Assembly (NCBI GenBank): GCA_010093995.1
Contig: ML992511.1
Location: 628,745 to 692,744, forward strand
Origin: Elsinoe ampelina
Taxonomy: Eukaryota
DNA: 64,000 nucleotides
Direction of reading: 5' to 3'
Shown here: positions 39,684-64,000 of the stretch, piece after piece
Numbering within the stretch: position 1 is the stretch's first letter
Layout: each line of letters begins with the position of its first letter
Position numbers and translations under genes: made by a program
The notes under the pieces: model-generated
Databases searched by the model: none
The model's input: the letters and a program-made list of their open reading frames with translations, nothing else
What the model was told of the DNA's origin: nothing

Positions 39684-42600
39684 ATGGAGAGGGCAAGGAA
39701 GCGTACCGCAGTCTCCACTCTCACCTCCAGCCTCACTGACGCTCCCCAGGCGAACTGCGCGACCTCAACCTCAAGATCTGGTCCGGTGAACGCGGTACTT
39801 CCATTCCCCCCCTTCCCCCACCGAGCACCTCCTCCTGACCAACCCTCTCACAGATGTCTTCCCCACCGCCCCCTCGCTCGACTCCTCCATGAAGAAAAAC
39901 ACCACCTTCATCAAGCGCTTGCGCACCGGCATCATCGCCTCCTCCCTCCCCGTCTTCCTCGCCGAAATCAAAACCCTCTCCCTCCACAAATACCTCTCCG
40001 AGATCATCAGCGCCTGCTTCGAGGGTATCTGCAAGCTGAAATCCCCCGCCGACATCGCCGTCGGAGTCGAGGTCGTCTCTGCCCTGCACCAGCGGTTCGG
40101 CGTGGAGGAGTTCACGGCTTATCTGGGGTGGTATGTGGGGAGGGGATTGAGTATGCCTGACAAAGGGGTTTTGAAGGGGATGAGTCACGAGGTGAGGGAG
40201 AGGGAGGAGAGGGAGAGGGTTGCGCGCCAGAGGGTGTTGCTTCGAGTTGCTACGGAGTTGTGGTTGGTTGGGGTGTTGAGGAGTTTGGATGACGTGTCGA
40301 GGCCGGAGGAGGCGGGCAAGGGGAAGGAGGGGAAGGAGGAGAAGAAGAGGGTGGGGGGTAAGGGGGAGGAGGAGCCCTTGCCGTTGGAGGCGTTGAAGGA
40401 GTTGTTGGGGCATGATAGGGAGCATGCGAATTTGCCGTTGGTGGTGCTGTTTGTCAAGACATTCAGCTGGGATGTGCTGGGGAGGAAGGCGAATAAGGTG
40501 GGCGAGAGAAAGAGGGTGGCGGAGGATGGGACGACGACGACTGGGGAAGCGCGGTCGGGGGCGAGCACGGAGACGGAGGAGGTTGGGGCCGAGGATGCGC
40601 CTTTGATCGATGCGGCGCTGCAGCAGAGGTTCAAGAATGTGCTCAATCGCTATTTTGAGGACGTCAAGGCTCATGTGGCGCGAGACCAGCAACATCTCAG
40701 CTCGCAAGGGAAGCGCAATGCGGAAGCCTACGTCAAGTCGGGAGAGGTCTTCGAGGATCGTCAAGCCAACTACGAGAAGCTGGTCAAGTCACAGGAGAAG
40801 CTCGTCGCCAATGCGCAAGTCCTCGCCGATGCTTTGGGTGCTGACATGCCGGATCTGGCGGAGAAGGAGTCTGCAAACGCAGGAGGCGACGGAGGTATCG
40901 GACTTGTCAAGACTGGTGAATACCTGCGCGGTCAGACTGATGGTGCTGGTATCTGGGAAGACGACGAAGAGCGCCGATTTTACGAGAACATGATCGACTT
41001 GCGCGAGCGGGTACCTGGTATTCTTCTGGAAGATCCGAAGAAGAAGAAGACGGATGGCGGAGAGGAGGTCAAGAAGGAAGAGAAGGCTGCAGAGGACTCG
41101 ACACCAACCGAGCCGGAGAAGAAGGCAGACGCAGCAGATGATCAGTCGACTGCGATCGCCAACAAGACTGTAGGTGCTCAGGTGGACTCGCTTCTTGCAC
41201 GACTGCCTGAACTCGTCACGCGAGATCAGGTCGATCAATTCGCCATCGACTTCTGCTTTGTCAATTCGAAAGCTTCTCGCAACAGGCTAGTCCGCGCTGT
41301 TGAAGAGATACCCAAGGGCAGGGTCGATCTCCTGCCACTGTACTCACGATTGGTCGCGACTCTGAGCAAGTGTCTGCCGGACGTATCTCAAGGCATCGTC
41401 AGCCACTTGGACGATGAATTCCGCAGTCTTCAGCGACGCAAGTCGAAAGAGTTTCTCGGCCAGGTACGAATGACCAACATCAGGTACATCGCGGAGCTGA
41501 CAAAATTCGGCGTCGTCCCGGAACATGTGGTCTTCCACTGCTTGAAGGTATGCTTGGATGATTTTTCTAGGATGAACATTGAGATCATTGCGAATCTATT
41601 GGAAAACTGTGGACGATATCTCTTGAGGAACCCAGAGACGTCACCACGCATGGCTTCTTTCTTGGAGACTCTTCAACGCAAGAAGAGCGCTCAACATCTA
41701 GGACAGCAGGAGCGTATGCTCATCGAGAACGCCGTGTACTATGTCAATCCGCCCGAGCGAGCTGCGATTCAGCAGAAGGAGCGTGATCCTCTTGATCTGT
41801 ACATCCGCAAGCTCATCTACCTCGATCTGTCTAAGAAATCGCTCGAGAAGATCATCAAGCAGATCCGCAAGCTGCATTGGGAAGAACCAGAGGTACCGGA
41901 GATGTTGCGCAAGATCTTCACAAAGCCTGGCAAGATCAAGTACAGCAACGTTTACCTCTTGGCCGTCATCCTTGGAGCACTTCATCGATACCACCAGGAT
42001 TTTGCCATCTCGGTCATGGACGACTTGGTGGAAAAAATCACGGTGGGTCTAGAAGTGAATGATTTCAAAGCTAACCAGAAACGCATCGCAGAGGTCAAGT
42101 ACCTCGGCGAACTGTACACTTACCGCATGGTGGACTCTACTCTCATCTTCGACACACTGTTCAAGCTCTGCAACTATGGTCATCCAGGAGGACATGCTCG
42201 TCCAGGCTCGATCTGTCCGATCGATTTGCCGGATGATTTCTTCCGCATCAGGCTTGTAGGCGCACTGCTTGAGACTTGTGGCTCTTTCTTCGAGAAGGGC
42301 GCCGTGAGGAGGAAGCTTGATTTCTTCCTCATGTTTCTGCAGGTAAGGAACTTGTTCGATTTCTCTCCGTCGGTTCATTGACCATTTAGTACTATATCTA
42401 CACCAAGGATCCGATGCCCATGGACATCGACTTTCTGGTACAGGATACGTTCGCACAGCTTCGGCCTCAGTGGAAGTTGGCGACGAGCTTTGACGAGGCG
42501 AGTCAGAAGTTTGCAGAGGCTTGTAGGCAGAATTACCAGCATACTGCTACTGCGAAGGAGCAGGAGCCGGAAGAGCCAGAGGAGTTACCTTCGTCTGATG

Positions 42601-44746: not shown

Positions 44747-45262
44747 CTACGCTGGAGTCGTCGGCTGGCTTGTGGTATAACCCGCCCTCTTGTCGACAGC
44801 TTCCGAGCTCAGCATCCTCTCCATGTTCATCCTCTTCTGATTACCCTGTTTGAAACTCTGCTGCCTTCCCAACACTCCGAGTAATGGCCTGCCCTCTCCC
44901 TCCGTCACTGGCCCCGTTGGACTCGTGCCGCTCGTCGCTTGACTGACCTGCGCACTCCCTGCGTCACCCCGGTACGCCAGACCGGAGGAATAGCGGGGCT
45001 CTGAACTGGATGAAGCTGCTAAACCGGACTTGTCTTCTGTCGAGACTGTCTCCTTCAATCGGTCTGCGAGAGCGGTCTCGTAATTGTTGGTCTTGCGGCG
45101 GTGGAGGGTGCCGTGAGGAGAGATGGGGTCGGATGGAGTCGCCGTGCCGGATTGGTGGTTTGATGGAGGGTTGGAGTCGATGAGAGAACGGGTGGCGGCC
45201 GCTGAGGGGCGTGAGAAGCTGTATGGTTCAGATGAAGCGGCGGCAGGGCTGACGGAGGTCAT
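44747..45262 (-). CDS. Hypothetical Ser/Thr-rich protein, 171 aa
   Basis: Single ORF with good start context (CACAATG) and fungal-like composition; motifs LHRRKTNNYETAL and LGRQQSFK. No family recognised. Confidence 0.65.
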   Translation of the reverse strand: MTSVSPAAASSEPYSFSRPSAAATRSLIDSNPPSNHQSGTATPSDPISPHGTLHRRKTNNYETALADRLKETVSTEDKSGLAASSSSEPRYSSGLAYRGDAGSAQVSQATSGTSPTGPVTEGEGRPLLGVLGRQQSFKQGNQKRMNMERMLSSEAVDKRAGYTTSQPTTPA

Positions 45263-45760
45263 TGTGCTGGTGTATTATGTGGTGCTGGTGGAAGAGTAAC
45301 GTTCCTGAACGAAGCTGGTGATGGAACTGGTGAGCAAGGCTTGGACCGTGTCGACGTTGGAGGTATTACTGTTGACGACGGTTGATGTCGTGGTTCAATC
45401 GTGGCTTTTCGTGGGAGCTTGAAGTCGATTGAGATGTCTCGGGTGTGCGATGTATACCGTGGCCGCTGGTAGAGATGGTTGGAGCGAACTCTGGTTTGGC
45501 GGAGAAGTTGAACGCTTTTAGTTGTTTGAAAGGAATGACAGATCTCTAGAGGGGCGAGAGGGGATGCCTGATCCCTTTGAGCACAGAAAGAGCTCAACAA
45601 AAGTTTTGGTGAGGGTGTGTTCACATGCTCCTTCTCCAGAAAACGCCCATGACGGACTCGTGCAGAATGCGGGGCAAGAGCTCAACCTTCGATCTGCTAG
45701 GTCCCCCACATGGGATTTCGAAACAATTTTCGAGTTCCCTTGAAGGGCAGATTTGCTCTT

Positions 45761-45890
45761 GCATCGAACGCAAGACCTTCAGATTTCGGGACTGGAGTTT
45801 TTGGCTTCAGCTGAGTTTCTTTAGCATGTTGCAATTTTAGTCAGAATCGTGGCACAAACTCTGACGCTCTCCCAGCTGAGCTATTGACGC
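45761..45890 (-). tRNA. tRNA-Phe(GAA)-like gene with two intervening sequences and a non-canonical 3' end (function uncertain)
   Basis: Minus strand: GCGTCAA TA GCTC AGCTGGGA GAGC G TCAGA [49 nt GTTTGT...CAG] CT GAA G [20 nt] A TCTGA AGGTC TTGCG TTCGAT. After removing both inserts, the D arm, anticodon arm and variable loop match eukaryotic tRNA-Phe, and A and B boxes are intact. No clean T-stem or acceptor 3' strand follows. Confidence 0.75.
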
Positions 45891-45897
45891 TTTAGAT

Positions 45898-45971
45898 TAC
45901 TTAGGAGAGCGGCGGATCTCTTTATATACTTAGGAAAACGGCGGAATTTTTGAACTACTTAGGAGAGTAGG
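45898..45971 (+). repeat. 29-bp-period tandem repeat (about 2.5 copies) at the euchromatin/RIP border
   Basis: TACTTAGGA(G/A)A starts at 45898, 45927 and 45956; the first two copies continue CGGCGGA. Confidence 0.75.
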
Positions 45972-46140
45972 AACTGTCTTTCGAACAAGCTTTAGGCATA
46001 GTCTAACCTTGCCTAGTATAAGATTATTAAGCCTAGACACTAATTACTAAGGAATAACCGGAGCTGCTTTAAGGGTTTAAGATTTAGAAGGAAGCGTCCG
46101 GCATTAAGAGTAGATCCGGCCGTAACAAGCGAAAAAGTGT

Positions 46141-47690
46141 TATTAACTTGTGTAGGGGAGGAAAAAGGATTAATTACTAACTACACCACTAAAATAAGGT
46201 AGATTATAACTATATAAATACTTAACCTAGTATACTAAAAGATAGCTAAATTAAAAGAACTTCTTAATAGTAATAGATTAAGACAATAATTATCTAATTT
46301 AATTATAGATTAGTAAAATAGTAAGATAGTATTTAGTTTAACCTTAGGATGAACTAAATTAGAGTCTTCTTAGCGCTCTAGCTTATACCTTAGTTAATAC
46401 ACCCCTTTACTAAATAGCTATAAGACTATTATAGCTAGTTAGTAGACTACTAACTCGAGGGATAGCTATTATAAGAAGGCCTTATACCTTCTAGGTAGTA
46501 ATAACTTAATTAATCTATTAGCTAAGGTGTCTACTAATAGTGTCTATATTACTAAGATAGNNNNNNNNNNNNNNNNNNNNNNNNNNNNNNNNNNNNNNNN
46601 NNNNNNNNNNNNNNNNNNNNNNNNNNNNNNNNNNNNNNNNNNNNNNNNNNNNNNNNNNNNNNNNNNNNNNNNNNNNNNNNNNNNNNNNNNNNNNNNNNNN
46701 NNNNNNNNNNNNNNNNNNNNNNNNNNNNNNNNNNNNNNNNNNNNNNNNNNNNNNNNNNNNNNNNNNNNNNNNNNNNNNNNNNNNNNNNNNNNNNNNNNNN
46801 NNNNNNNNNNNNNNNNNNNNNNNNNNNNNNNNNNNNNNNNNNNNNNNNNNNNNNNNNNNNNNNNNNNNNNNNNNNNNNNNNNNNNNNNNNNNNNNNNNNN
46901 NNNNNNNNNNNNNNNNNNNNNNNNNNNNNNNNNNNNNNNNNNNNNNNNNNNNNNNNNNNNNNNNNNNNNNNNNNNNNNNNNNNNNNNNNNNNNNNNNNNN
47001 NNNNNNNNNNNNNNNNNNNNNNNNNNNNNNNNNNNNNNNNNNNNNNNNNNNNNNNNNNNNNNNNNNNNNNNNNNNNNNNNNNNNNNNNNNNNNNNNNNNN
47101 NNNNNNNNNNNNNNNNNNNNNNNNNNNNNNNNNNNNNNNNNNNNNNNNNNNNNNNNNNNNNNNNNNNNNNNNNNNNNNNNNNNNNNNNNNNNNNNNNNNN
47201 NNNNNNNNNNNNNNNNNNNCTTATAACTTAGATAGCTAGAAACTAGCTTAGATCTCTAAGCACCTTTATCTTATATTTAGTATAGAGAGCTATAATAATA
47301 GTATTAGCTTTCTCCTTATGCTTCTTAAGATATATAATAGTAATATTATTTATAAAGAAGAAGATTATTACTTTAAGTATTATCTAGAGGTATAGAGCCT
47401 TAGGGGCTTAAGTAAATCTAATGCCCTTTAGAGTAGTAGTAAATTTAGTATACTAGAGAGCTAAGGCTTACTTTAGGCTATATAGTGCCTTATTAAGCAA
47501 TAGAATTACCTCTAATAGAGTAATACTAGAATAGTCCTTTATAAGATTCTCTACTACTAGCTTAAATCTAGTAGAGATAGTATAGTAGGTAGTCTTATTA
47601 ATAGGACTATTAATATAGGCATTAATAATATCTATCTAGATAGCCTTTATGTTTTTATAAGTAAGTAATGCTATAAGCATTCTAAAGATC
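46141..47690 (-). mobile_element. RIP-inactivated Ty1/Copia retrotransposon, 3' part (RT, RNase H, PPT, 3' LTR), spanning the assembly gap
   Basis: Minus-strand remnants *IDIINAYINS (QMDVxNAY), LLNKALYSLK*A (LxKALYGLKQA), FFFINNI (FVDD), LRDLS*FLAI (LGDLSWFLGI) and LANRLIKLL (LADGLTK). PPT AAAGGGGTG abuts an LTR at 46141-46399 with inverted termini TATTAAC...GTTAATA (RIP-converted TG...CA). Confidence 0.88.
46561..47219. other. Assembly gap (N run)
   Basis: Run of n characters. Confidence 1.
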
Positions 47691-50600
47691 CGTCACGAAA
47701 TCCCTAACGCTAGGGAGCTACATTAGACTACTTCTAAGTAACTAACTTAGTTTAACTTAGTTTAATACAATCCCCTAGTTACCCCTAGGCCCTACTTAGA
47801 AGCAATATAGTTTTTCCCCGCAGAAATCTAAAAACCTCTAATACGTAGCAAATAGAGACGGCCTAATAGCAGATAGTGCACTACGTATATCTCTTATCTT
47901 AGTTTAAGCGTTTCTTAGTTCGCGAAGTAATTAGTTCGTGTCTACTCTATAAGCTTAATAATATCAATTATAGAAATATTCTATTACGTAGCTTACCTTA
48001 TAGTATATATTGTATATGTCTATATATTATATAGACCTTATAATTCGTTTACTACGTCTAGAAAATTATATAAGGTCGCTAGAATACATGTATTACTTTA
48101 CGTTCTACCTAACGCTACTCTTAATAATGATATATATACTATCTTCTTATAATTCTATATTCTTATCCCTTAGTTCTATAAAAGCATCTCTATCTAGCGG
48201 ATGTCTATCCTCCTTAATGTCTAAGATACTACTACTATGCTTTAGGCCGATTTAGTACTATAAGACTAGTTTACGTAGTAGGCCTCTAAACTTCTTACGT
48301 GTAAAGGATAAAAAGTTTATCTACGTCCGTGTACCTAAGAAATTCTTCTACTACGCCTTGACCGCTAGTAAATCGCTATTAAGTTGTCTATCTTAGGACA
48401 GTATAGTACGCGTATAATTAAGTAGCCCGGGTGAATGTCGCTATTAAGTCTATTAATCCTCGTATATACTAACTATAACCTAACTTAGTTTAGTAGTAGT
48501 TAAAGTTATAACAAGGTTACTATCTATATTAGGTATCTACGCTAGCTATACTTCTATTGTAGGAGTTACTATAGGGCGATTTAGTACTTCGCTCCTATAT
48601 ACGAACTAAGTAGTACCTTAATATGCTATAATAGGGCATTCGGCCTTAATTAGACACTCTTCTTGATCTATTAGTATTAAACTTAAGAAGCTAATAGAAG
48701 AATTAAGCTTACCTCTTAAAAGGTGCTTAGTAGAAGTATTTCGTACTAGTGCTGTATAATAGCTATTACCTCTACTATTAGGCCTGTTATTACATACCTA
48801 ACTTCTCTATAAGTTAGTTTAAAGTTAGGTAGGCCGAACTAAAACGAGAAGGTATATATATACCTTTCCCTTGTATCCTCTCTATCTAATAGTCCCTCTA
48901 TAGTGTTAGTATAAAGAGATATATTTAACACTACTACTATAATAGTAAGTCTATTTCTCTCGACGTACTTAGCAAAGCTAAGTTTTAGCTAACAAAGGAT
49001 AAGAACCTATCTCGGGCTAATCTACACTAGGAAGTTATTTTAAATACTTAGTTAGACATAATTAAGTTCTAAAGGTTTTATATGTTTAAATACTAGCGTT
49101 CCCTTAGGTAAGTAGGACTTAACCCCGTCTACTTACTTAACTAAGAGTATATAAATCGTTACTAGGAGAGAGAAAATAAGAAAGAGTATTAGTTTATTAA
49201 AGTAATAGCAAGTGCTAGCTATTATAGCTAAGCCTATATGTCTAATAAAGGCTACTCGGAAGGCTTTATATATTAAAGAACTCCTAAAGTATTTACGCTA
49301 CTATATGTAAGTAATTAATTAATAAGTATATCTAGCGCGTACTAAATTGCTATCCTTATATTAGTACTTTCTTTTCTCTAGTAGCCTACGTACCTAATTC
49401 GGTAGCTCGCTATTCTCTAGCCTCTTAGCTAGCTATTTGTAGTAGAGCATCTTACTTACTATTTATGTAATATTATTATAACTATAGCGGAGTGCCTCTC
49501 GGAGCTACACGTATGTTAATAAGTAATTAGCTTTAGCTACGTAACCTACCTTACTAGCTATAACTACAGAAGAGTATTTACCTATAGTTCTCTATAGATA
49601 AAGTACTAGTAGCCGGTTACGGACTAAGCGCTAGTACTGTGTAATTCGCGGGAGTAGCTATTAATCGTCTAATGTTAGTAATATTGTATTATAATCTACT
49701 CTAACGGCTGTACTTATATATAGATTATTACGTACTACCTCGAAAATGTCGAGATACTAGTTTAGTACGTTCTATTGCCTCTACTTTACTATCTTAACTA
49801 GCGTAGAGGCTAATATTAGACTATTCTCGTCGGGTTATAGCTCCCTTAAACTTGGATCGAGAGTAGTAATGTCTAATTTATACCTTCTCCTTTGTCTTCG
49901 ATGTTATATTTATAGCCTACGTAGTTAGCTTAGTCTCTCTTAATGCTAAAGCCTTACTCTACTTTATCCTAGTTAAAATAACCTAAATTGTCATCTTCGG
50001 AATACTTATTAGTCTTATAGTCTAAGCTATATAGGCACTAACGTGCCTAAGACATCTTAGTTTATAATAGTTCTAATAAAGAGGTATATAGGTGTAAGAG
50101 AGTTAGTAAGGCAGGCCGGAATAATATATACTATAAGAGGGATAGATAGTTATCTTATGTATGTTATAGTAATTTAGTATTAGTTTAAGTTAGATAACGG
50201 CTTAGTTAGGTATTTAGAGTGTATAACTTTCTTCTAATTAGAATTAGTTATATCTGCCTATACCCTAAAATAATCTTAACTAGTAAGGGTATTAAATTAG
50301 ACTTGTAGCTAGGTCTAACTCGCGGAGTGCTAATTGCTAGAAGCTAAACTAAAAAAGAAAGCTACTCGAACTTACTTAAACTAAATACTCGAACTAAATA
50401 TAGTATTTGTTATTAGGTTAAGTAATAATTAAAGTAGAAATACGTAGAGAGAAATTATAGATTAAACTTAGACTAAGCAATTATACACTAATTCGAAAGA
50501 CTATAGGAACTAGCTATTATATATATAGACAGGTAGTATAATTTATATAGTAGCTCCCTTATTAATTACGTTAGTAGTCCCCCCTTTACTAAGTAGTATA

Positions 50601-52466
50601 TCTTCTAAGTGCTAAAAGTATTAATTGCTTACTATCTCGCTATCTAGAGTGTCCGAATAAGATACGCTAGATAGAGTAGCTTATCTTCTACTAATTATAT
50701 TATAATAGAGAGCAGGCGTCGATTAGCTGTTAGTAACTATATATAGTAATAGTAGAGTAGTACTGTTAGTATAGCGTCGTGTACCCTTGTTTAATCCGAA
50801 TAAGCCCCTTAATACTCTACTAGTAAGGTCCGTAGAGGCGACGCTAAACGCGTAAAAAGCTTTACTAATATACTCCCTAAGTATATTATTCTCTTACTAG
50901 AGTTATCCGATTAAGCTTACGTTCTTCTTCGCTATTAATCGTAATTAGCCTACTTCCTACTAAATAAGTATAATGTCTTCCTCTAGGAGTTACTATCTAT
51001 TAAGCTATTTAGGCTACTAGGTCCTATGTCGCTTTTGCTAGCTACTAACGTAATTATACTCTTCTCCGTACATATATAGTAGAGAGCTTCTAATTTAAGC
51101 CTCTAGCTAGTTAGGGAGACTATTAGAAGACTATGCTTTAATACCTAAATAGATAAGAGAAGCCTATATACTTAATCCTATAGTCTAGATGTTAGCCGCT
51201 AGAGAAATAAGGTCGGTATAATCGATATCTATACTTAGGAGCCTAGCTAAAAGATACTAATAGACCTAACAGATTAATAGTAGAAGGATAGATAAGTAAT
51301 TTCAAAGGGCAATTTAGTTAAAAGGTAAGGAAGGATAAAGCGTAGTAAACGAACTAAAACTCTAGGGTTTAGTAGTAGATATAGCTTAGCGTAGATTGCC
51401 CTACTACTTTTTAGTTTAACTTAGTCTACTACTAGACTATTCTCCTTTATGCTTACTTTAGCTAGGTACTTTCCTTAATCTCGTTGCCTTATTAGGATAT
51501 AAAGAGGTAAACTATATAATATCTTAGACAAGATAATAGCCTTAAACTAGATAGTATTCTCTATTATAGCGAAATATAGCGTTCTATTGTCCTTTTAACC
51601 TATAACATTGCTTTGCTTATTGTATATATAGTAGTCTGTTATAATTAATATTACTCTTAGCTAATCAAACTTAATATCTATATTCTCCTTAGACACGGTA
51701 GTTGTAGCTTTATAACGTATAAGTAAAAGATCTCTAATCGAGTAGATAGGACGTATCTCTCTATCCTTACGAACTACTAATAGTATGTTGTCTAGTTAAT
51801 TAGAGAGTAAAGGCACTTATAATTACAATTAGCAATTCGAGGATTTATTCGAGGTAAGCGTATTAGCACTATTCTACGCTCCTCTAGGCTTATATAATCT
51901 TAAGTATAACTATACCTACTAACGTCTAAAATTAGTACTTATCTTATAGACAAGAGCATAGAAGGCAGCTTAACTGTCGCTACTCTCTAAGAGCTCTATT
52001 GTACGCCGAAACGTGCACCGAATATTATTACTATCTAGTGCTACTAGAAGTACCTTCTTCTCTAACTTTCTCCTATTAGAAATCGACCTAAATATTCTTC
52101 TAACTATACCTTTGCCTATTATAATATCCTCTAAGAGACTATATAAGTCTCTATAGCCTTTATTGTTAAGAGCAAGGGCTTACTTAATAGCTTTAATTAA
52201 GTATATTACTAGTTAATAAGAAGTAGATATAGGTATAGCTACGGAGGAGAGGAGAGAGGTAGAGGTAAGAGAGTAGCAGTATAGGTAGCAATTCGGTGTA
52301 AGTGTTGCTTACGATAGATAAGCCTTAGATCTTAGTTTACTTACGAGAGGGGCATGCTAGAATTATGCTTAGTTATAATTAATTAGCCTAAACTAATACT
52401 CGTAGAACTACAAAGTTCGATATGCTAAACTTTATCTTTTCTTAGTTTTGTCGTATACTTATTACG

Positions 52467-53266
52467 TAGCGACATAACTATATTATAAATACAATTCGTA
52501 ATAACGCCTTAGTTTGCGCCCTCCGCTTATACCGACCTAAACGTAGGTATTAGCGTCCCTAGTATAACCTTTTCTCTCCTCTCTATTCGACCTTAATAAT
52601 AGCTAGCTATCTATTATAGCAGATTCCCGCGCCTAGTATACTACAATTATTAATTGTTATATATACTATAGCAACTCTAATATTTACTCCTACCTCGCTG
52701 TTGCTACTACTTCTAATAGTATTCTCTATACTAGCTATATCGTGTTTATAGAATTAACTACTACTAGTACCTAGTAGTTACGCCGGAGTAAATCTATTAT
52801 AGTATACCTCTCTATCTTGCCTACTACGCCGCTATAGGCTTAAGGGTGCGTAAGGAGACTTCGATATCTCTTTCTCTCTCCCTACTACCGCTACTCTCTA
52901 TAGCTTCCTTTATACTAGCTATATATTATTAGTAGGATTAGCTACTATCTCTACCTAGTAGCTACGACTAAGTAAATCTATCGCGGAGTATCTCCCGATC
53001 TTATAGATAGCGCTACTAGGGGTTCTAGCATACGTAAAGAGAGTAGAGGAGCTAGCGTCTACTAGGAATTACCTGCCTTATAGTATAAGAATATTAAGGG
53101 GAGAATTACGGAGGAATAACTAGTATAATAAAGAGAAAGAGACAGAGGTATATCGTAGGCAAAGATACATCTACTACCTCCTACTAGATAGTAGCTTACT
53201 ATAGAGAGCGTCGTAGGCGGAGCTATATTAGTAGTATTCTCTTTTATAATTGCTTTTATAGCAGGG
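52467..53266 (+). repeat. ~800-bp direct repeat, copy 1 (copy 2 at 59640-60438)
   Basis: Colinear, nearly gap-free match at an offset of ~7173 bp; differences are mostly transitions. Confidence 0.95.
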
Positions 53267-54076
53267 TTTTGTTATTAGTAGTGCTTTGTTATAACTTTCT
53301 TACGTTAGTAATATACTTCTTTCTACGTAGATTGTATATCTATTACTTTAATCTCCCTCCTCTAACTAGTAAATAAAATCTCCTTATCTAATATATATAA
53401 GTATACTATATATCTTTCTTTATTCCTTGTTATTTGTCTTATCTCCTATCTACTATAAAGACATTAAGGTTGTTACTTTACACAATAATGCTCTTTGTTA
53501 AATAGTTCGCTAGCTGTTTAAAGTATATATAACTTTATATATAGTACTAATATATAAGTGTTTAGTATAGTTAATTACTTCGACACTAATTTTCTGTAAT
53601 AATTAGCACTTATAACATTCTCTAATAGCTATGTTTTGTTTGCTTACCTAATTTACACCCTATAATATTTGTTAGTAGTAAACTAACTTATTTACTTTTA
53701 GTTCTAGTATCGACCTAATATTAGTAATTATTACGTGTTACTATTAGCACGTACGAAATATAGACTTAGTTAACTTAGTTTACTTTTAGGTCGAGGCCTA
53801 AACTAGATCTTAGTTATAAGTGTACTACTTACTTTAGTATATTATCTTAAATACAAATTTTATTATATTTAAGAAGTTACTACCTACTTTCTATATAGTA
53901 TTTTAATATTATACTAGGTAGTAGGTATTTATAATTACTACTGTTTACTCTATAGTACTTAACTTACTACGCTTAGTTCCTAGCTATATAATCTTAACTC
54001 CTCTAACCTTACCTGCCTTATATAACGCCTTTACTAGTAGACATTCTTATACTTATTAAATATATATAATAGCACT

Positions 54077-55402
54077 ATACTGCCGAAGATAAAGAAGCTA
54101 AAGGTCGCTACTAAACCTATAGAAAAGATTCTACTTAATAACCTTATACTAGCTCTTGTTAAGAATACGCTTTATAATAATAATATTAGTAAGAAATCTA
54201 TCTAATTCTTCTTTAATTAGGATAACTAGTAATACTCTACTACATTTACGAGGATAAAGAAAATAATCTTAAAAGTCTTTATAGAATCTAATATTAAAAT
54301 TAAGAAACAAGACAGAAGCGAGTTATATAATCCTAAGGTGCTTAAAGCATATCTTAAAATTGAAACTAGACTACTAAATAGCATACCTAACAATTTCTAG
54401 CTCTTTGTTAACCGACTAGATCGGAAAGATCTAGACTAGTTTAAGGAGAACTTACGGACTATAGTTAATATTAATAAGATAAAAGCTATATAGCGATTAT
54501 TCCGAAATACTATATAATTAATAAGGGCAAATCTCCTATTAGTTAAAAGGGAAAGAATAACGTTACTAGGTAAAGAAGGCACCTAGAGTCTATATCCTTT
54601 AGCTACCTCGTCCGTATAGACACTAATGCTCTTCTAAGTAAGAACACCATCCTCGGAGAGATATATAACTTGTGTAAAGACAGGTAATAAGAGATTAGAT
54701 TTGTATATATAGCCTCGTTATAGAATGTTTAGCTTTAACTAGGGGCTAGTGTCTAATTATGTCTAGATTAACATTAAATTCGCTACGATCTAGATTATAG
54801 AGATTATTAAAGCAGATACTATTCCGTATCTAATATTAAGAAAGAACATCCGCGTCTATGACTTAAGAAAGCCTAGTACTAGCAAGGACAAGAATTGTTG
54901 TGTTAATTACTATATCGGTAAGCTTAGGTAGATTCTTAACATTAGAGATAATTACCTCTAACTCTACTAGCTTAACATATATAACTCCGCATAAGTCTTC
55001 GCTATTAAAGACTCTTTCGATCTAGACGCCGCTATTACTAAGTATGTTATAACTCTTATCCCCGGTGCCTATAAGATCTTTCTCTATCTTACTTCTTCTA
55101 TAGTATCTATTAAAGATCTTCTCGACTTTATATAAAGTAAGTTTACCCCTTTCCTATTTATCTATGTATACTAACACTTATAGACAACCCTTATTAATAT
55201 TATAGTGGCTAGCAACTACTTCCTTTAGCCGAGGTTACTATAGAAGAAAACTCGGAAGTGTTTCTTACTCCTAAGAAGCTTTGCTTTATAGATATTAATA
55301 CTAACAAGAAGCGTAAAGGAGATTAGTAGAAAGAGAATATTATAATATAGAACATTTAATACCCGCAATAGCGACTAAACCGCTAAAGGCAAGAGCGGTA
55401 AT
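54077..55402 (+). pseudogene. RIP-destroyed gene A of unknown family, paralogue of the N-terminal part of gene B
   Basis: One reading frame from ATA (ex-ATG) 54077, an intact-looking 47-nt intron 55137-55183 (GTAAGT...CTAAC...TAG), and colinear peptide similarity to the 61.3-62.5 kb frame. The end point is approximate. Confidence 0.75.
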
Positions 55403-58400
55403 ACTACTATATTTTATTTGCTATTATGTTATTTATAAAACTGTTTAGTTCTTAACTAATAAAGTTTTATTTAGCTCGTTCTGCCCCTAAGAGCCTATAG
55501 CCCCTATAAATCCTGCGATTTCCGTTATTATTATTAGAAGTAAACTTACTTAATAGTTCTATAACTATAGCTAGACGGATTTCAACTAACCTAGCAACTT
55601 AGTTCGGAGTGTAGTTTTACTTTATATAGTTTTAGAAGAATATAGCTCCTTCTCCCCTACTAGAAGAACATAGCCTATTTAGACTATAGTATATACTACT
55701 AAGGCGCTATTTATATTTCTACTACTTTAATAGCTTAAAGAATATTATATAAGCTACTATATACCTAAGGCCGGCTATCTATCTAGATAAATACGATCTC
55801 TCGGAGCTCTCTAATACCTCTTCTAAGTTTCACTTTATTACTAGTAACTTCCTATAGCCCGCCTAGTACGCTATAACGTATTATAGTAAAGAGAGCAAGT
55901 CCGAGAAGATAATAACTTACTTCTACTAACACAAGATTAACATCGGTATTAAAAAAGTAATATGTTCTTAATATTATTAACAATAGAAACGAAGTAATGC
56001 CACTATAGATACAATAGACTAGAGCGTTTAATAATAAGTAAAACAAGTTAGCGAGATAGGATCTTATCCCCTATTATAGTAGAAGCAATAGTATAAGTTT
56101 TAGTTCTATACCGAACTTAGAGTTAACTAAATTAAATAAGAATAGTATAGTGCTATAAAGAAGCGCGTAGGTGTTACTACTAACATAGTTATTAGGCTTT
56201 ACTCTTATATACTAGCAAGGTTTATACGTAGTATACTTAGAAGTTAATAAAGAATTCCCGCCGACTATTATTAGTTCTAGCTACTACCTCCTAACAAATA
56301 GCAAAGATACTTTAGGTCAGGTTACGCCTCTTAACTAAGTATAAACTTAAGTTAGTTTAGTTAGCCTAAAACTAGAGACAAACTTATTTTATATTAGGGC
56401 GGATAAGTTCTTTAAGGGAACACTATAACACCTAGCTATCTTATACCTCTCCTTGTTAGGCAATTGCTACTTAGTATTAGCATAGCTCTACCGACTATAT
56501 ACGTAGGTTTAGTATTAAGCTTAATATTTAATATAAGGTTAATTACACCGAGAGAAAGGGATTAGATACCTACTACTTAACGAAGGTAGCTTTGACATAG
56601 TAGAGCTAGTCTCTATCTATAGGCAGTAAAGACGTACCTATTATAAAGAATAAGAGAGGATAAACTAGACACGATTTAACTTAATATTACTATATAATAT
56701 AATAAGAGGTAGCTCTCCGCCTATACAAAGGTAATATAAGAATAGTTAAAGCCTATCGTAGCTCTCTTTTCGTAAATATAATAGTTACTTCTTGTTTCTA
56801 GTTCGAAATCTTCGTATTAGTCCTTATATAGATAGCTAGACTTCTATTTATTCCTCTTAACATGTATCTTGACCTAATTATAAAACATTTAGTAGCTACG
56901 CTTGCTTTTATGTCTTATTAGGTTTAAGATATTTCTAACTAGGACTCTAAAGTTTTAATCGAGGATAGATATCTTATTTCTTTAGCGGCACTATATATAT
57001 AAATCGCTTCGCGCATAGGGGAGTATACCTTAACTACGATTATAGAGACGCTATATAGGAGAGAGTAGTATAGAATAATATCTATATTTAATAAGTAAAA
57101 GGAACCTAGAGGTAATTATACTAGATGTTATTACAAGCTTGCTTTATTTACTCCGCCGCCTCGCTAGTATAGAAAGAGTAATAACATTAACTAATATTAT
57201 AGCAGGGGCTATAAATACTTCTTAGACTTTATACCTCGAGCTAAAGTAGTAGATAAGCATATAGCTAGCGCTACGCTAGATTAGAAATATAGGGCCTTTA
57301 TGTTATTATTCCTAAGATTATAGAATAGAAAGCCTATAGTTAGAAAACTAAGAGGTAGTAAGGGATTATTCGTGTATATAACTCTATAGCGCTAGCAGTA
57401 GCTATAGTAGTTAGTTCGACTTAGTTAGTCTAGTTCGGTTGTTACTAATAAGAGAGCTACATCTACAATAACTTAAGAGAATCCCGAATAGCTAAGCTAT
57501 CGGAATTAGTAAAGGTACTAAAGTTATCGTTGTTAATTATAGAGAGAAGTCTATAGTAAGCTACGTAGGTATTATTAGAGTAGCTATATCGAAGTAAACT
57601 TACTTCGAGAAGGCTACGCTAGTTAGTTTATAACTAGGAATAGCGTATAGTTCTATAACAAGTAGAGTACTAGTGCTTCTACCTTAATAGTGTAACTTCG
57701 CTTAACACAAAGTTAGTGTGTAGATCTAATTATTATAGTAGACTTCCGATAGTGCCTTAGAGAATATAATATTCGCTAGCGTAGATATAATAACAGCGTT
57801 TATGCTTAAGCTAACTATACTATCCTATCGGCTAAAGAAGTAAGTTAACTATAGCTACGATACACTAACGATAATATAGAAGGTTATATAAGACAATATA
57901 GCAAAGCAAACGAACTAAAAGCGTAGTTGTTTAAACTAATAGAGGAGTAATAGTAAATTATTAGTTTATCCTTGTTAAGATTGGTTAAGGGAACACTTAC
58001 AATTTTCACCTAAAAAGCGCTAGTTTTAGTTTAGCGAACTAATTAACTACCCCTAATAGATTAACTATAGGTATAAACGACCTAATGTTATACAGCCGAG
58101 GCGTCTTTATATACCGCTATTACTATTTTTTTGTAGAGGCTATTTATAACTAACTTATTACAATACTAGTAACAAGTCGAGACACGAGATAGTAAGAGCT
58201 ATAAATTGTTTACTAGCTGAAATTATTATGCCTAGGCGGCACTCTCTATTTTATAATTGCTATAAAAGCCTCTACTAAGAACAATAGCGCGACAATAGCT
58301 AATTAAGTATAGTATTTAACATTGTTCTTAAGCGAGAGATAGCTAATAAACTCTATCGCCTAGATATATTAGAGCAAACTCTGTCTCGATGTGTCTAGTA

Positions 58401-59323
58401 CTATAGCGTAGATATAATTTTAGCTTTAGTCCGCCGACGCTATACAATAGCTTAGTCCTATTAGCTCTACTACGAATTACGGTAAATAAGAACCGAACTA
58501 AGTAACGAGGTAGAAACGATAGCCTATAGCTAGCGTTAGGTGTCCTTCCCCCTTTGCCTACTATATAGTATAGTATAGTAGATAATTCTCTTAGTCTCTT
58601 TACTAACCTCGACCCTCGACCTCTAGCATATAGAACAGATAGTAATAGTAATAGTAGGCTCGATAGTGACATATATAAGGAAGAGAAGAGCATAGACAAG
58701 GTTATAATAGAAGGCACGCACGAGAAAGAGTAAGTAATTACAGTAAGTATAACTAGTAGCACGTCTATAGGGCGGAGTACTAGGAGGTTGTTCTTATCTA
58801 GTAGAGCTATATCTAATTATACTACGTTCGAGATAGTAACTAGTATACTAGCTAGTAGCGAGGAGTTAGTAATAGACATAGTTTATCCTTAGTTTACATT
58901 AACTAATCTTGTCTAGATCTCCCTAAGTCTATAATATATCCTTCGCCCCGAGCGATTAATAAGATATAGCTTAGCTAGGGACCCTTAGCTCGGCGCTCTA
59001 ACGTTTAATAAAAGGCAAGCTACTAACTTAGATAAATAATTTTAATTCGAGTTAGGTCGTCGTAGTAGAAGTGCCTTCTAGTAGAATACACTTGCCGTAG
59101 ACTACTAGCCTCTATATAATGTTCTAACAAATCTACTTCTACCTACGTAAGGGTACTAAAGATATGTCTAAGTTACATACGCGAAGGCTATAGTAGTCTA
59201 ACTAATAGTAAAATAGTATTTACTAGTAGGAAGCTTACTCGGCTTAAATTTAGTAGTATAAATCGTTGCTTTACTCTATCTCTAGCATGTTATATATAGC
59301 AGTAGTAGAGGGCGGCCGGTAGA

Positions 59324-59512
59324 GGACAGCTAGTAGTTTATTACGTCGAACTAACAATTTCTTAGTTCTCTCTCTCGAAGTTTAAAGATGATCTAAAATT
59401 TCGACCTAACTATAGCTAGTAGGGGATAGCTAGTAGTTTATTACGTCGAACTAACAATTTCTTAGTCCTCTCTCTCGAAGTTTAAGGATGACCTAAAATT
59501 TCGACCTAACTA
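59324..59512 (+). repeat. Tandem duplication, 89-bp unit with 100-bp period
   Basis: GGA(C/T)AGCTAGTAGTTTATTACGTCGAACTAACAATTTCTTAGT...AAATTTCGACCTAACTA at 59324-59412 and 59424-59512; about 4 transitions. Confidence 0.95.
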
Positions 59513-59639
59513 GATTAAGTACTCCTCGGAACTCAATTATATAATGCTATCTAATTATGTTCTTCTCTAAAGTTAAGTATTGTATGTTTAGAGACTTATA
59601 ATCTTTATAACATTATAAACGCGTTACAAACCCTGTTTA

Positions 59640-60438
59640 TAGCGATATAACTATATCGTAGACACGATTTACTATAACGCCTTAGTTCGCGCTCTCTACT
59701 TATACTAACCTAAATATAGATATTAGCGTCCCTAGTATAACCTTTTCTCTCCTCTCTATTTAACCTTAATAATAGCTAGCTATCTATTATAGCGGATCCC
59801 CTGCCTAGTATACTATAATTATCTATTACTATATATACGATAGCGACTCTAATATTTACTCCTATATCGCTATCGCTACTACTTCTAATAGTATCCTCTA
59901 TACTAGCTATATCGTATTTGTAGAATTAACTACCGCTAGTACCTAGTAGTTACGCCGGAGTAAATCTATTATAGTATACCTCTCTATCTTGCCTACTACG
60001 CCGCTATAGGCTTAAGGGTGTATAAGGAGACTTCGATACCTCTTTCTCTCTCTCCGCTACTACTACCCTCTATAGCTTTCTTTACACTAGCTACGTATTA
60101 TTAGTAGGACTAGCTACTATCTCTACCTAGTAGCTACGACTAAGCGAATCTATTACGGAGCATCTCCTAATCTTATAGATAGCGCTACTAGGGGTTCTAG
60201 CGTATGTAAAGAGAGTAGAGAAGCTAGCGTCTACCAGGAATTACCTACCTTATAGTATAAGGATATTAAGGGGAGGATTATAGAGGAATAACTAGTATAA
60301 CAAAGAGAAAGAGATAGAGGAATATCGCGGGCAAAGATACGTCTACTACCTTCTACTAGATAGTAGCTTACTATAGAGAGCATTGTAGGCGGAGCTATAC
60401 TAGTAGTATCCTCTCTTACTATTACCTTCCTAGTAGGG
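59640..60438 (+). repeat. ~800-bp direct repeat, copy 2
   Basis: Matches 52467-53266. Confidence 0.95.
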
Positions 60439-61322
60439 CTAGGCGAGGAATAAAGCGCATTTATAATTATGTAGAATGTACTATTAACTGCCTATTCCGC
60501 GGAATGTATAGCCTTTACTCTACCCTACTACTCGATTCTATATATAGCAATTATAAAGTCTAAATAATTAGATAGTAGTATATTACTTTCTTTATTCCTT
60601 TACTAGTATCTATAAGCTATACTATACGCTATATATACTATGCCCTTTATTCCGCTATAGGCTACTAACTACCTTCTATTTATATTCTATTGCTATTGTC
60701 CTTTATATACGAATACTAGTTTCGCTATTAAAATATTATTTAATTATTTTACATTAACTACTACTATATTCTCTCTATTTATTAGACTATTATCCCTTAA
60801 GATCTACCCTAAACACGACAATAGTATCCTTAGTGTATACGGCATATAAAATAAAAGGTAACTAAGTATATAGACTATAGTTACTCTTAGTTTAGTATCT
60901 AAACTAAGTAATCTACTATTACATGTATACTGTATCTAGTATACTACTACGTGCTTAGTTTAGGGCCTAACCTAAGTCGACTAAATTTAGGTTACTTCTC
61001 TCTTTAATTGCTTTAGTTTACCTTTATTTATACTCTCTTATATATAAACAAATAACTTATATAGCTCTCTAGTATTTCTTTAACCTCTTTAACCTCTCTT
61101 TTAAGCGCTCTTTACTTAAATATCTCCTCTTTAGTTAAGTCTTAGTTAGGCATATATTATAAAGTACATAGACTTGCTATGTTAATAAATCCTCTCTTTA
61201 ATTCTTCTAAACTTATAAATACGTAACACCTTTATAGAATCTCTTCTTTAATATCTACTATACCTACTTAACCTATTTACTAGATATTATTCTAAGCTTT
61301 ATTTATAGCATATACTAAGCTT

Positions 61323-64000
61323 ATAGACGCACGTAATATGTCTAAGAATTAGCCTAATAGCGCTAGTATAGCTACTAATAACATTCCACTCTACGAAAGA
61401 CCTCCTATAGAAATTTAAGTATAGCTCAATAAAAACCTTAAGATTAAGAGATTCTTCCTTAAATTCTTTAACTAGGACAATAACTAGTACGCCGCCGCAC
61501 GCGTAAGAGCGTAGAAAGAATATAAGAATACCTATATAGTTCTAGGACTTAAATATAAGGAACCTTAGGATAGTAATGTTAATATAACTACAATTATAGA
61601 TAATATTAAAACTTCTCTACGATACTCTTAGGATAACTATACGAAGATCTTCTTTTAAAGACTATACTATTAAGACTAAGACTAGTTTAAGAGGAACGTT
61701 AGAAACTATAATAATATATCTAGTTATAATATTATTAAAGATTTTGTCCTTACTATTAAGGCGTAAGAGCTTAGGAATAAGAAGAATTAGACTAAAGTAG
61801 ACAAGAAGGCTTATCCTAAGAAGCATATTAGAAAGTGCCTCTTCGCTACCTAGTCTAATAGCGGACTCTCTAAAAGATTAGAGACTTCTATACTTAGTAG
61901 CAGACTTATAGGCATAGATATTAATTACTGCACTAGTTAGCCTATACATTAGTAGTAAATGCTAGAGGACATGTCTTATCTAGTCTAGAGCATTATCGAT
62001 AAAACTATTATTAACTTTATAATTGTTAAGTAATTAGACATTAGCCTAGGCATAATTATAAAGAGAGAATGTTCGTGTCGTCTATAAGCGTTTAGTCTAA
62101 GAATTTTAAGGTTATATCCGGAGGATTATAATCTAAACGTATATAGCCTTAATAATATTAGGCTATTCCTAAAGGAGAAGAAGTTAGTTAGTAATAACAT
62201 TATCCTTATATAGATAGATTATATAGAGCTATATAACATCCTACCTATCTTAGACAACTACGACCTACGTGCTGCTATAATTAACTATATTAACTCTCTA
62301 GTTAAAGGTAGTAATGTAATTTTTGTCTATCTTACGCCTAGTATAGATCTAGTTAAGAAGCTCCCTAAAGAAGTACTTTATAAGTTTAATACTTAGTTCG
62401 ACTTAGGTATATACTAATATACTTAGTTAACTCTCTTTAGTATTATAATAGTTAGAAGCTATCGACTCTAGTCTAGGAGGAAGAGGAAGAGAAACCTCTA
62501 GCCCTTCTATCTCTAGCTAAGCGCCTACTACTGTGTAAATCTACCTCTAAGAAGTAACCTAGCTCTCTATTACCTAACGAGGATAATACTACTATTAACT
62601 ATCGTCCTACTCGGGTAATAGAAGACAAATACTATAAGTAATACTAAGATAGTAATTAGTATCCCTTTATAATTATACCTAGCAAGGAGCAAGTAAGGTA
62701 CTATATTCTATTAGTCTCTAAGACGCTATCTATACCTATTCTAGCACTTATAACTTACACATTTAATAAGACTCTTAGTAGCTTAGACTTTGTTAAACTT
62801 TATACTATAAACGACAATAACGACAAGTAAACTAGTAATAATCTAGCTAACTAAAGCTTTATCTCTATAGGCACTAGAATCGATTACTAGTCCGAAGAGT
62901 TCTAGGAGAGAGTCTATAACTTTATAGGCTTTAAGAAAGACATCTACTTACCGAACGCTAGTGTATAGTATTTTAGTTAGAATAAGAAGTATCTAGTCGA
63001 GGTAGTATAGATATACTTAGCGCTTATTACACTTAAGAAATACCTCGAAGGCTATCTAGTATTTATGTTTATATATAAGATAGAATTTAGAAAGACTCCG
63101 ATAGAACTCTTCTTTCTCTTACTAATTTAGAACTTAAATAAAAAAGTTATCTAGGATACTAACTATACTACTATACCTAAGAACAAGTAGAGTAAGTACT
63201 AGAAGGTAAAGACACTAGTTAACGAGCTATAGCTAGATGTCGCTTCTATAGATACTATTAGCTATAATCTAATTATTAGCGAATTAAATGTAATAAAATA
63301 GTAAGCGTAGGAGACACGGAAGTTTATACCTAATATAAAGGTCGTCCTATACTAGAGAAGGATATTCTAAACTATATAAGAATATAAGTATAGCAACGTA
63401 TATAACATAGACACTTTAATTCGCAAAGAGGATCTACCTATAGACTACCGCTAATAGGAGTCTTAGCTAATAGATAAGTCTAGTAAGCCTATCGACACTA
63501 TTATAGTCTTATAACTAGTTAATATATATAAGCGACACTCTCGGACCTTATAGATAAATAATTAGTTCTTCTTCACTACTTATAACACTATAATCTACTA
63601 CTTCCTTAGTAAGAATAACGTAAATGCCAAGGATTAGAACTTTGTTCCTAAGGGACAAGAGAGAAAGCCAAGGTCTACGCCTATAAACTAGGCCGCTATT
63701 ATCTTTAATAAGTTCTATTAGGTTACTAGCTAGAAGACGTAGACCTAGTATTGTCTAGGAATACTACCGGGGAGGCCTTTTATACTAGGCATAAGTAAGA
63801 CGCTATTTGTTAAGTACTTAAACATAGTAGCGTTCTTAACAGCGGCTATATATAAGGACTTTAGATTAGAAAAGCTTAATGTAAATAGAAGTAGAATAGG
63901 AGAATTTAACGAGAACTATATCTATAAATCTAAGTAAGAGCTAACTAAGGCTAAGAATAATAAACGTTAAGCAATACTAAAGATAATACTAGATAAGACT
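61323..64000 (+). pseudogene. RIP-destroyed gene B: unknown N-terminal domain fused to a SNF2-like SF2 helicase (runs off the window)
   Basis: Continuous frame with a 47-nt intron 62380-62426. *AAIIFNKFY* at 63689-63721 reverts by RIP rules to WAAIIFDEFHQ (motif II), preceded by FFTTYNT (TTYD) and followed by LGISKTLF (LGMSxTPF, motif III). Confidence 0.75.

Follow-up and report, generated by a model that had tools for sequence, protein, structure and literature searches.

A putatively disrupted tRNA-Phe gene with a self-closing T-loop insertion at the border of a RIP-mutated block in an ascomycete

Introduction

Ectopic and multiple tRNA introns are known from Crenarchaeota, Cyanidioschyzon merolae, and nucleomorphs, and according to the available portions of these sources most of those found in nucleomorphs are incapable of forming a bulge-helix-bulge motif (PMC4090602, PMC3728597), which is described as 3-nt bulges around a 4-bp helix that is flanked by helices (PMC3728597). 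The excerpts name the Guillardia theta nucleomorph for ectopic introns of this kind (PMC3728597, PMC4090602) and C. merolae for a tRNA-Ile(UAU) with three introns, one of which is in the T-loop (PMC3728597). Because most nucleomorph introns cannot form the motif, its absence from an insertion border is, as far as these excerpts go, not an absolute bar to the insertion being an intron. Oddly placed insertions in eukaryotic tRNA genes are discussed in one of the same excerpts, where they are said to affect mostly one of many synonymous copies and are taken to mark pseudogenes (PMC4090602).

Sequences of tRNA descent also occur in other settings. The available part of one account describes low-copy, tRNA-related SINEs of 140-493 bp in an ascomycete and gives a target-site duplication of 4-14 bp for AfuSINE2 of Aspergillus fumigatus (PMC5063351), and tRNA-derived repeats are present in a subset of fungal genomes according to a second partial source (PMC8450103). 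In a third, likewise available in part, tRNA genes are listed among natural heterochromatin barriers (PMC7544195).

Here, we compare with these systems a tRNA-Phe-like locus on the minus strand of the window, i.e., the whole 64,000-nt stretch of ascomycete DNA that was analysed. The original prediction for this locus was a multi-branched RNA domain attached at the T-loop of a tRNA-Phe-like gene, to be understood as a structured T-loop intron, as part of a tRNA-headed Pol III RNA or SINE-like RNA, or as the 5' leader of a gene for a 171-aa protein.

Results and Discussion

Identity and Layout of the Locus

As judged from its helices and loops, the minus-strand locus is a descendant of an intron-containing tRNA-Phe(GAA) gene of an ascomycete (Table 1). 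The expected helices and the anticodon loop of tRNA positions 1-59 can be read from the sequence: block I supplies the acceptor 5' strand GCGTCAA, a perfect D arm, and the anticodon-stem strand TCAGA, and block II supplies ATCTGA, the variable region, the T-stem strand TTGCG, and the T-loop bases TTCGAT. The 19-nt D-arm word occurs only once in the window, with an expectation of 0.01 matches at up to three mismatches. Between the two blocks lies a 20-nt intron at 37/38, which we take to resemble that of yeast tRNA-Phe. Insert 1 starts with GT and ends with AG on the minus strand and holds a TCTGA able to pair with the anticodon-stem 5' strand, and a competing helix of this kind appears in the predicted fold.

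Table 1. Features of the tRNA-Phe-like locus and of the surrounding sequence, by position in the window
Feature	Position	Strand	Evidence or values
Block I: acceptor 5' strand, D arm, anticodon-stem 5' strand (tRNA positions 1-31)	45860..45890	-	Sequence reading
Insert 1, 49 nt, between tRNA positions 31 and 32	45811..45859	-	
Anticodon-loop piece CTGAAG (positions 32-37; anticodon GAA)	45805..45810	-	
Canonical 20-nt tRNA intron at 37/38	45785..45804	-	ARAGORN intron call after excision of the other inserts
Block II: anticodon-stem 3' strand, variable region, T-stem 5' strand, T-loop to GTTCGAT (positions 38-59)	45763..45784	-	
Insert 3, in T-loop, 89 nt (90 with C 45673), perfect 8-bp closing stem	45674..45762	-	
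Last T-loop base and T-stem 3' strand CGCAT, 4/5 pairs, T49.T65 mismatch	45667..45672	-	
Insert 4, 17 nt, from T-stem to acceptor-like strand; weakest of the inserts	45650..45666	-	Excision required for ARAGORN call
Acceptor-like 3' strand TGGGCGT, 6/7 pairs, two G-U, running into T4 run	45640..45649	-	
Gene for 171-aa Ser/Thr/Pro-rich protein	44747-45262	-	Well covered in RNA-type runs; depth 297 in run X3
Antisense spliced transcript, exons 45614-45827, 45876-45966, 46017-46175	45614..46175	+	One 464-nt contig of run X3, depth 7.34
Three tandem 29-nt repeats (TACTTAGGAGAGCGGCGG...)	45898..45984		72% and 69% identity to first copy
RIP indices, locus	45600-45900		TpA/ApT 0.40; (CpA+TpG)/(ApC+GpT) 1.54
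RIP indices, first part of AT-rich block	45900-46150		TpA/ApT 2.07; (CpA+TpG)/(ApC+GpT) 0.48
RIP indices, remainder of AT-rich block	46150-64000		TpA/ApT 1.8-2.0; (CpA+TpG)/(ApC+GpT) 0.16-0.31

The original prediction that the T-loop is interrupted by a discrete, self-closing insert is borne out by the sequence and by a count of comparable layouts. The 8-bp stem GCAAGAGC (45762-45755) / GCTCTTGC (45681-45674) begins at the first base past GTTCGAT, and CCCGCA follows the closing stem directly on the 3' side, where its CGCA pairs with TGCG of the T-stem, both as had been described. In the layouts that we counted, a 5-nt strand plus six loop bases precedes a perfect 8-bp inverted repeat with a gap of 0-2 nt, the second arm of the repeat lies within 160 nt, and four bases complementary to the 5-nt strand come 0-2 nt after that arm. 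This arrangement was met at 10 of ~91,800 strand positions in 1-45900, of which the target is one, and at 40 positions in the repeat-rich part of the window. Given this rarity, a chance match is a very improbable source of the T-stem 3' strand that follows the insert. Insert 3 sits inside a formerly complete T arm.

Farther 3', TGGGCGT (45649-45643) pairs imperfectly with GCGTCAA, as had been noted, with six of seven positions paired (two as G-U) and one A.G mismatch, and the short T run said to follow it was found as four Ts at 45643-45640. T-stem and acceptor strands of such quality are at chance level (9930 of 20000 random 163-nt windows), and 3' strands with an adjoining T-run were found in 188 of 20000, both counts being based on match criteria that were fixed after the sequence had been seen. 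A split gene with an exact acceptor 3' strand elsewhere was also considered and set aside; the nearest minus-strand TTGACGC is >14 kb away.

A working tRNA, which the original prediction did not regard as established, was likewise not recovered by searches of the native sequence. ARAGORN called no tRNA over the whole window, also when introns were allowed, and the 68 calls that it made at a lowered threshold had absurd introns and are uninformative. The Rfam search proposed along with the original prediction returned 0 matches in the window at gathering scores (Rfam 15) and, at E <= 10 over 45400-46100, no tRNA, the sole match being a 13-nt chance hit to DUF805b. ARAGORN calls a tRNA-Phe(GAA), and recognises its 20-nt intron, only once 49, 89/90, and 17/18 nt have been removed by script. 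Since tRNAs are also called for 456 of 3000 random 30-nt 3' ends placed on the same 59-nt head, this call is a poor guide to the 3' part. Flaws remain in the rebuilt tRNA, namely the mismatches T49.T65 and A6.G67, the wobbles G1-T72 and T4-G69, and a T at position 73. In yeast, A73 is a phenylalanine identity element.

The possibility that the inserted pieces are duplicated parts of the tRNA was rejected. Local alignments of inserts 1 and 3 with tRNA pieces in two orientations scored within the range of shuffled sequences, with 355, 121, 167, and 217 of 500 shuffles scoring as well.

Folding of the T-Loop Insertion

The multi-branched structure that had been drawn for the insert holds only in part. 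Its closing stem and its TCGAAA/TTTCGA hairpin are retained in the optimum fold of the 89 nt, and the remaining helices are not; the ATCTGC and CCCT helices cannot both be of full length because one C is common to both. The five-helix fold as drawn was evaluated at -26.5 or -26.7 kcal/mol, i.e., ~8 kcal/mol worse than the optimum of -34.9 kcal/mol.

The insert folds better than shuffled sequence, with a z of -3.66 and 0 of 200 shuffles reaching the same energy (z -4.65 with 100 shuffles). The plus strand of the same 89 nt folds at -33.3 kcal/mol (z -3.57), and because this is nearly as good (-3.57 vs -4.65), the fold does not indicate a strand. Among arbitrary 89-nt windows, 3 of 252 had z <= -3.5 and 7 of 252 had z <= -3; these controls were taken from this 64-kb window at 126 places on both strands with 25 shuffles each, and the comparison favors insert 3, the borders of which were chosen on its stem whereas those of the controls were untuned. 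The whole 264-nt unit folds unremarkably (z -1.71; 11 of 200 shuffles equal or better). We conclude that the predicted fold of insert 3 is good but neither unique nor strand-specific. The insert would fold well because of its own inverted repeats, and we do not think that it was selected as an RNA domain. Nothing indicates that the insert functions as an RNA domain or that its fold is used. Neither box motifs of C/D or H/ACA snoRNAs, as sought by eye in the insert, nor an Rfam match to such RNAs was found.

Two minor matches were noted in this part of the locus. An exact 11-nt direct repeat, AAGAGCTCAAC, is located at 45588-45598 and 45676-45686, with a spacing of 88 nt. The 3' arm region of the closing stem forms one of the two copies, and the repeat could be due to chance (blastn-short E ~4). 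The one metagenomic sequence that matched the T-loop/insert junction and the closing stem was rejected as a chance match because it is GC-rich DNA lacking blastn similarity to the window.

Chromosomal Setting and Transcription

The indices of repeat-induced point mutation (RIP) switch at the 5' end of the element (Table 1), and the GC fraction, ~0.50 at 45600-45800, goes down to 0.2-0.3 beyond 46180. An 18-kb AT-rich, RIP-mutated block with a GC fraction of ~0.32 thus begins within ~10 nt of the tRNA-like 5' end and extends over 45900-64000. The only frames of at least 80 aa in this block are one across an N run and one of 81 aa, and Pfam searches with the 16 longest of its 61 stop-to-stop frames found no family. 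The tandem 29-nt repeats lie in the RIP-mutated DNA, from 8 nt upstream of the tRNA-like 5' end onward; the differences among their copies are mostly G-to-A. Yeast Ty elements integrate just upstream of Pol III genes. By analogy, repeats that integrate just upstream of Pol III genes would explain the position of the RIP border.

Four sequencing runs were compared for RNA, no run listed for this sequence being on record as such. Run X3 behaves as RNA, a classification that is itself a guess: it has a depth of 297 over the 171-aa gene and adapter sequence at a contig end, whereas the word fractions of the DNA-type runs X1 and X2 are 0.98 and 0.97. Runs X4, X8, and X12 have no cover over the element and are uninformative there, and these libraries are in any case unable to show Pol III RNA. 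The only RNA found over the element is a plus-strand contig, antisense to the tRNA-like gene, that was detected in one of the four runs and that retains the 89-nt stretch. Its introns (45828-45875 and 45967-46016) are both GT..AG on the plus strand with unambiguous joints, and CTGAC and CTAAC serve as branch-like sites within them. At the first intron, the 3' splice site coincides with the tRNA D arm read in antisense. The transcript diverges from the promoter region of the 171-aa gene and runs into the AT-rich block. Once spliced, it holds no long reading frame; its 71-aa frame has no homologue and belongs to no Pfam family. If the locus is the relic proposed below, it shows how a tRNA D arm read in antisense can provide a divergent ncRNA with a functional 3' splice site.

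For the 171-aa gene, the mRNA contigs stop at 45573 (run X3, with adapter) and 45555 (run X4), i.e., short of the element, which is a weak hint against the proposal that the element is the 5' leader of that gene. The 171-aa protein matches no Pfam family. Its nearest Atlas clusters are all Ascomycota hypothetical proteins, one of which is auto-named 'Inhibitor of glycogen debranching 1' (score 0.91) and is to be taken as a lead only. Contigs of a related organism cover only parts of the 171-aa gene.

Origin of the Locus

We regard the locus, with moderate confidence, as a disrupted tRNA-Phe gene that is possibly still a Pol III or TFIIIC site. The ancestral tRNA-Phe(GAA) gene of the ascomycete would have had the usual 37/38 intron, to which three pieces would have been added: 49 nt after position 31, 89/90 nt with 8-bp inverted-repeat ends in the T-loop, and probably 17 nt ahead of a decayed acceptor 3' strand. 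The multi-branched domain would then be a T-loop insertion that folds through its own inverted repeats, and a normal tRNA-Phe could presumably not be produced from the locus. With the A-box and B-box regions apparently intact, the locus may still bind TFIIIC or Pol III, and a Pol III product would be a ~250-nt tRNA-headed RNA ending at the T4 run. The element lies in DNA proximal to the promoter of the 171-aa gene, precisely where the 18-kb RIP-mutated block ends, and the low-level antisense transcription across it would represent a spliced non-coding RNA diverging from the promoter of that gene.

As in tRNA pseudogenes and relics, tRNA descent is clear here and includes the canonical intron, the lesions are disabling, and ARAGORN and Rfam are silent on the native sequence; the descent is recognised only once the pieces have been joined. 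Unlike in such relics, the damage consists mainly of three discrete insertions, one of which is long, self-closing, and well folded, and 59 nt of tRNA sequence look untouched. Three discrete insertions (17-90 nt) beside 59 nt of apparently unchanged tRNA are atypical for neutral decay, and the intact blocks could be kept by selection or gene conversion. The fold of insert 3, which is among the best ~1% of the windows tested, and the T-run directly after the acceptor-like strand, as in a real Pol III gene, are further counterpoints. It is because the damage pattern is odd and because the T-run adjoins the acceptor-like strand that our confidence is held at this level. If the locus is indeed such a relic, it is an ordinary one with two mildly useful points, namely a barrier candidate and a source of a splice site, and importance would come only if the inserts prove to be removed from RNA.

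Other explanations assign a present role to the locus or to RNA made from it. It may be an exapted Pol III unit, the tRNA head of which serves as the internal promoter of a ~250-nt tRNA-headed ncRNA, with the T-loop insert as part of the RNA body, or as a heterochromatin stop bound by TFIIIC/Pol III. A tRNA-derived head with A-box and B-box regions is present, positions 8-21 and 52-61 being tRNA-like when read against the box consensus; C61 is restored by the second base of the insert itself, a TATATAAA word is located 31-38 nt upstream, and the T4 run comes right after the acceptor-like strand. However, the A-box and B-box are spaced by ~100 nt, which is longer than in ordinary tRNA genes, the TATA word sits in RIP-mutated DNA, where TpA is generated in excess, and a promoter role would not require that the anticodon arm or the canonical intron be kept. 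No minus-strand RNA was seen in the runs compared, which were unable to show one. The T-run is only four long (45643-45640), and four Ts are a weak Pol III terminator in yeasts. The location of the element exactly at the RIP border fits the citation of tRNA genes as natural heterochromatin barriers in the available part of one source (PMC7544195). It resembles the barrier tRNA genes of the fission yeast centromere and of human in that a putative tRNA-type promoter stands between heterochromatin-prone, here RIP-mutated, DNA and an expressed gene, and it differs from them in that the gene is not intact and may owe its position to an accident of repeat insertion. We consider exaptation unlikely. 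On the reading of the locus as a relic, the survival of a tRNA-type Pol III promoter right at the end of a RIP-mutated block would make it a concrete and testable candidate for a heterochromatin barrier in a filamentous fungus. It is less probable still, and in our view quite improbable, that the plus-strand spliced transcript is the relevant RNA, such that the fold belongs to exon 1 of an ncRNA or a leader and the tRNA likeness is a mere relic. The two unambiguous GT..AG joints and branch-like sites of the 464-nt contig, the z of -3.57 for the plus-strand fold, and a start at 45614, ~40 nt from the end of the mRNA contig of the opposite gene, argue for this explanation; against it, the transcript is known from a single contig in one of four runs at a depth of 7.34, compared with 297 for the neighboring gene, it has no long frame, its 71-aa frame has neither a homologue nor a Pfam family, and no link between the fold and a function is apparent. 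By-products are, moreover, common among divergent promoter transcripts.

A mobile origin, in which the locus is a tRNA-derived SINE or other small mobile element or in which only the 89-nt insert is mobile, as a miniature inverted-repeat element now lodged in a tRNA gene, would account for a tRNA-related head that is continued by unrelated sequence and for the 8-bp terminal inverted repeat of the insert, and it draws on the low-copy ascomycete SINEs of 140-493 bp (PMC5063351) and the tRNA-derived repeats of some fungal genomes (PMC8450103) described in the available parts of those sources. In its tRNA head with Pol III features, unrelated continuation, size, and low copy number, AfuSINE2 is similar to the locus as far as the available part of its description goes (PMC5063351); the differences are that the tRNA part is here interrupted rather than being a head with an unrelated body, and that neither a target-site duplication nor a second copy was found in the window. 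The longest word common to the flanks is 5 nt, which was matched by 1793 of 2000 shuffles, and the borders of the insert itself have no visible duplication. Apart from chance words of 11-13 nt, nothing in 45600-45950 recurs in the 64-kb window. The four RNA-type runs yielded no further contig at >=80% likeness over 45614-46145, and there is no A-rich or simple-repeat tail. The SINE-like option of the original prediction is thus disfavored by the missing target-site duplication and the single copy within 64 kb, and we hold a mobile origin of either kind to be very improbable. The structured T-loop intron of the original prediction is not supported: that the locus is a functional tRNA-Phe gene holding three ectopic introns besides the canonical one, the T-loop intron being long and structured, is to us very improbable. 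The ARAGORN call of a tRNA-Phe(GAA) after scripted removal of the inserts, the intact tRNA blocks, and the discrete, self-closing T-loop insert, which brings the exon ends together, speak for it, as does the precedent of ectopic introns without the motif in the Guillardia theta nucleomorph, as given in the available excerpts (PMC3728597, PMC4090602). Like the introns of C. merolae, Crenarchaeota, and nucleomorphs, the inserts affect the anticodon-stem region and the T-loop besides the 37/38 position. Against this, a strict search of the 266-nt precursor for the bulge-helix-bulge found eight motifs, 0 of them at the borders of inserts 1, 3, and 4, and in relaxed forms, which were inspected by hand for inserts 1 and 3 only, neither register lets the opening bases of insert 3 pair with those that open the 3' exon. 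The product would be mismatched at T49.T65 and A6.G67 and would have two G-U pairs in its acceptor stem as well as T73, the ARAGORN call is weak for the 3' part (456 of 3000 random 3' ends are also called), insert 1 competes with the anticodon stem in the predicted fold, and no spliced minus-strand RNA was seen, the sole contig being from the plus strand. Unlike the C. merolae and archaeal introns, those proposed here lack a bulge-helix-bulge at their borders and belong to an ascomycete and to a flawed rebuilt tRNA; the C. merolae example in the available excerpt is 22 nt long (PMC3728597), in contrast to 89-90 nt here. No report of ectopic tRNA introns in fungi was found in the literature searched. 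An expressed nuclear tRNA-Phe with four introns, the ectopic ones at 31/32, 59/60, and 65/66 and without a bulge-helix-bulge, and with a structured T-loop intron of 90 nt, would be the first fungal case and would imply an unknown route for the removal of such introns, and we accord it a small likelihood.

Neighboring Sequence

Several observations were made on the sequence around the putatively disrupted tRNA-Phe gene. At 46146-46261, several contigs of run X3 align at 80-95% likeness with a summed depth of up to ~600, which points to the expression of a repeat family akin to this stretch of the AT-rich block. A run of 659 Ns is located at 46561-47219 within the same block, and the plus-strand transcript heads towards it. 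On the other side of the element, a long open frame on the plus strand (39889-42381) contains a MIF4G domain (E 6e-60) and presumably encodes an Upf2/Nmd2-like nonsense-mediated-decay factor.
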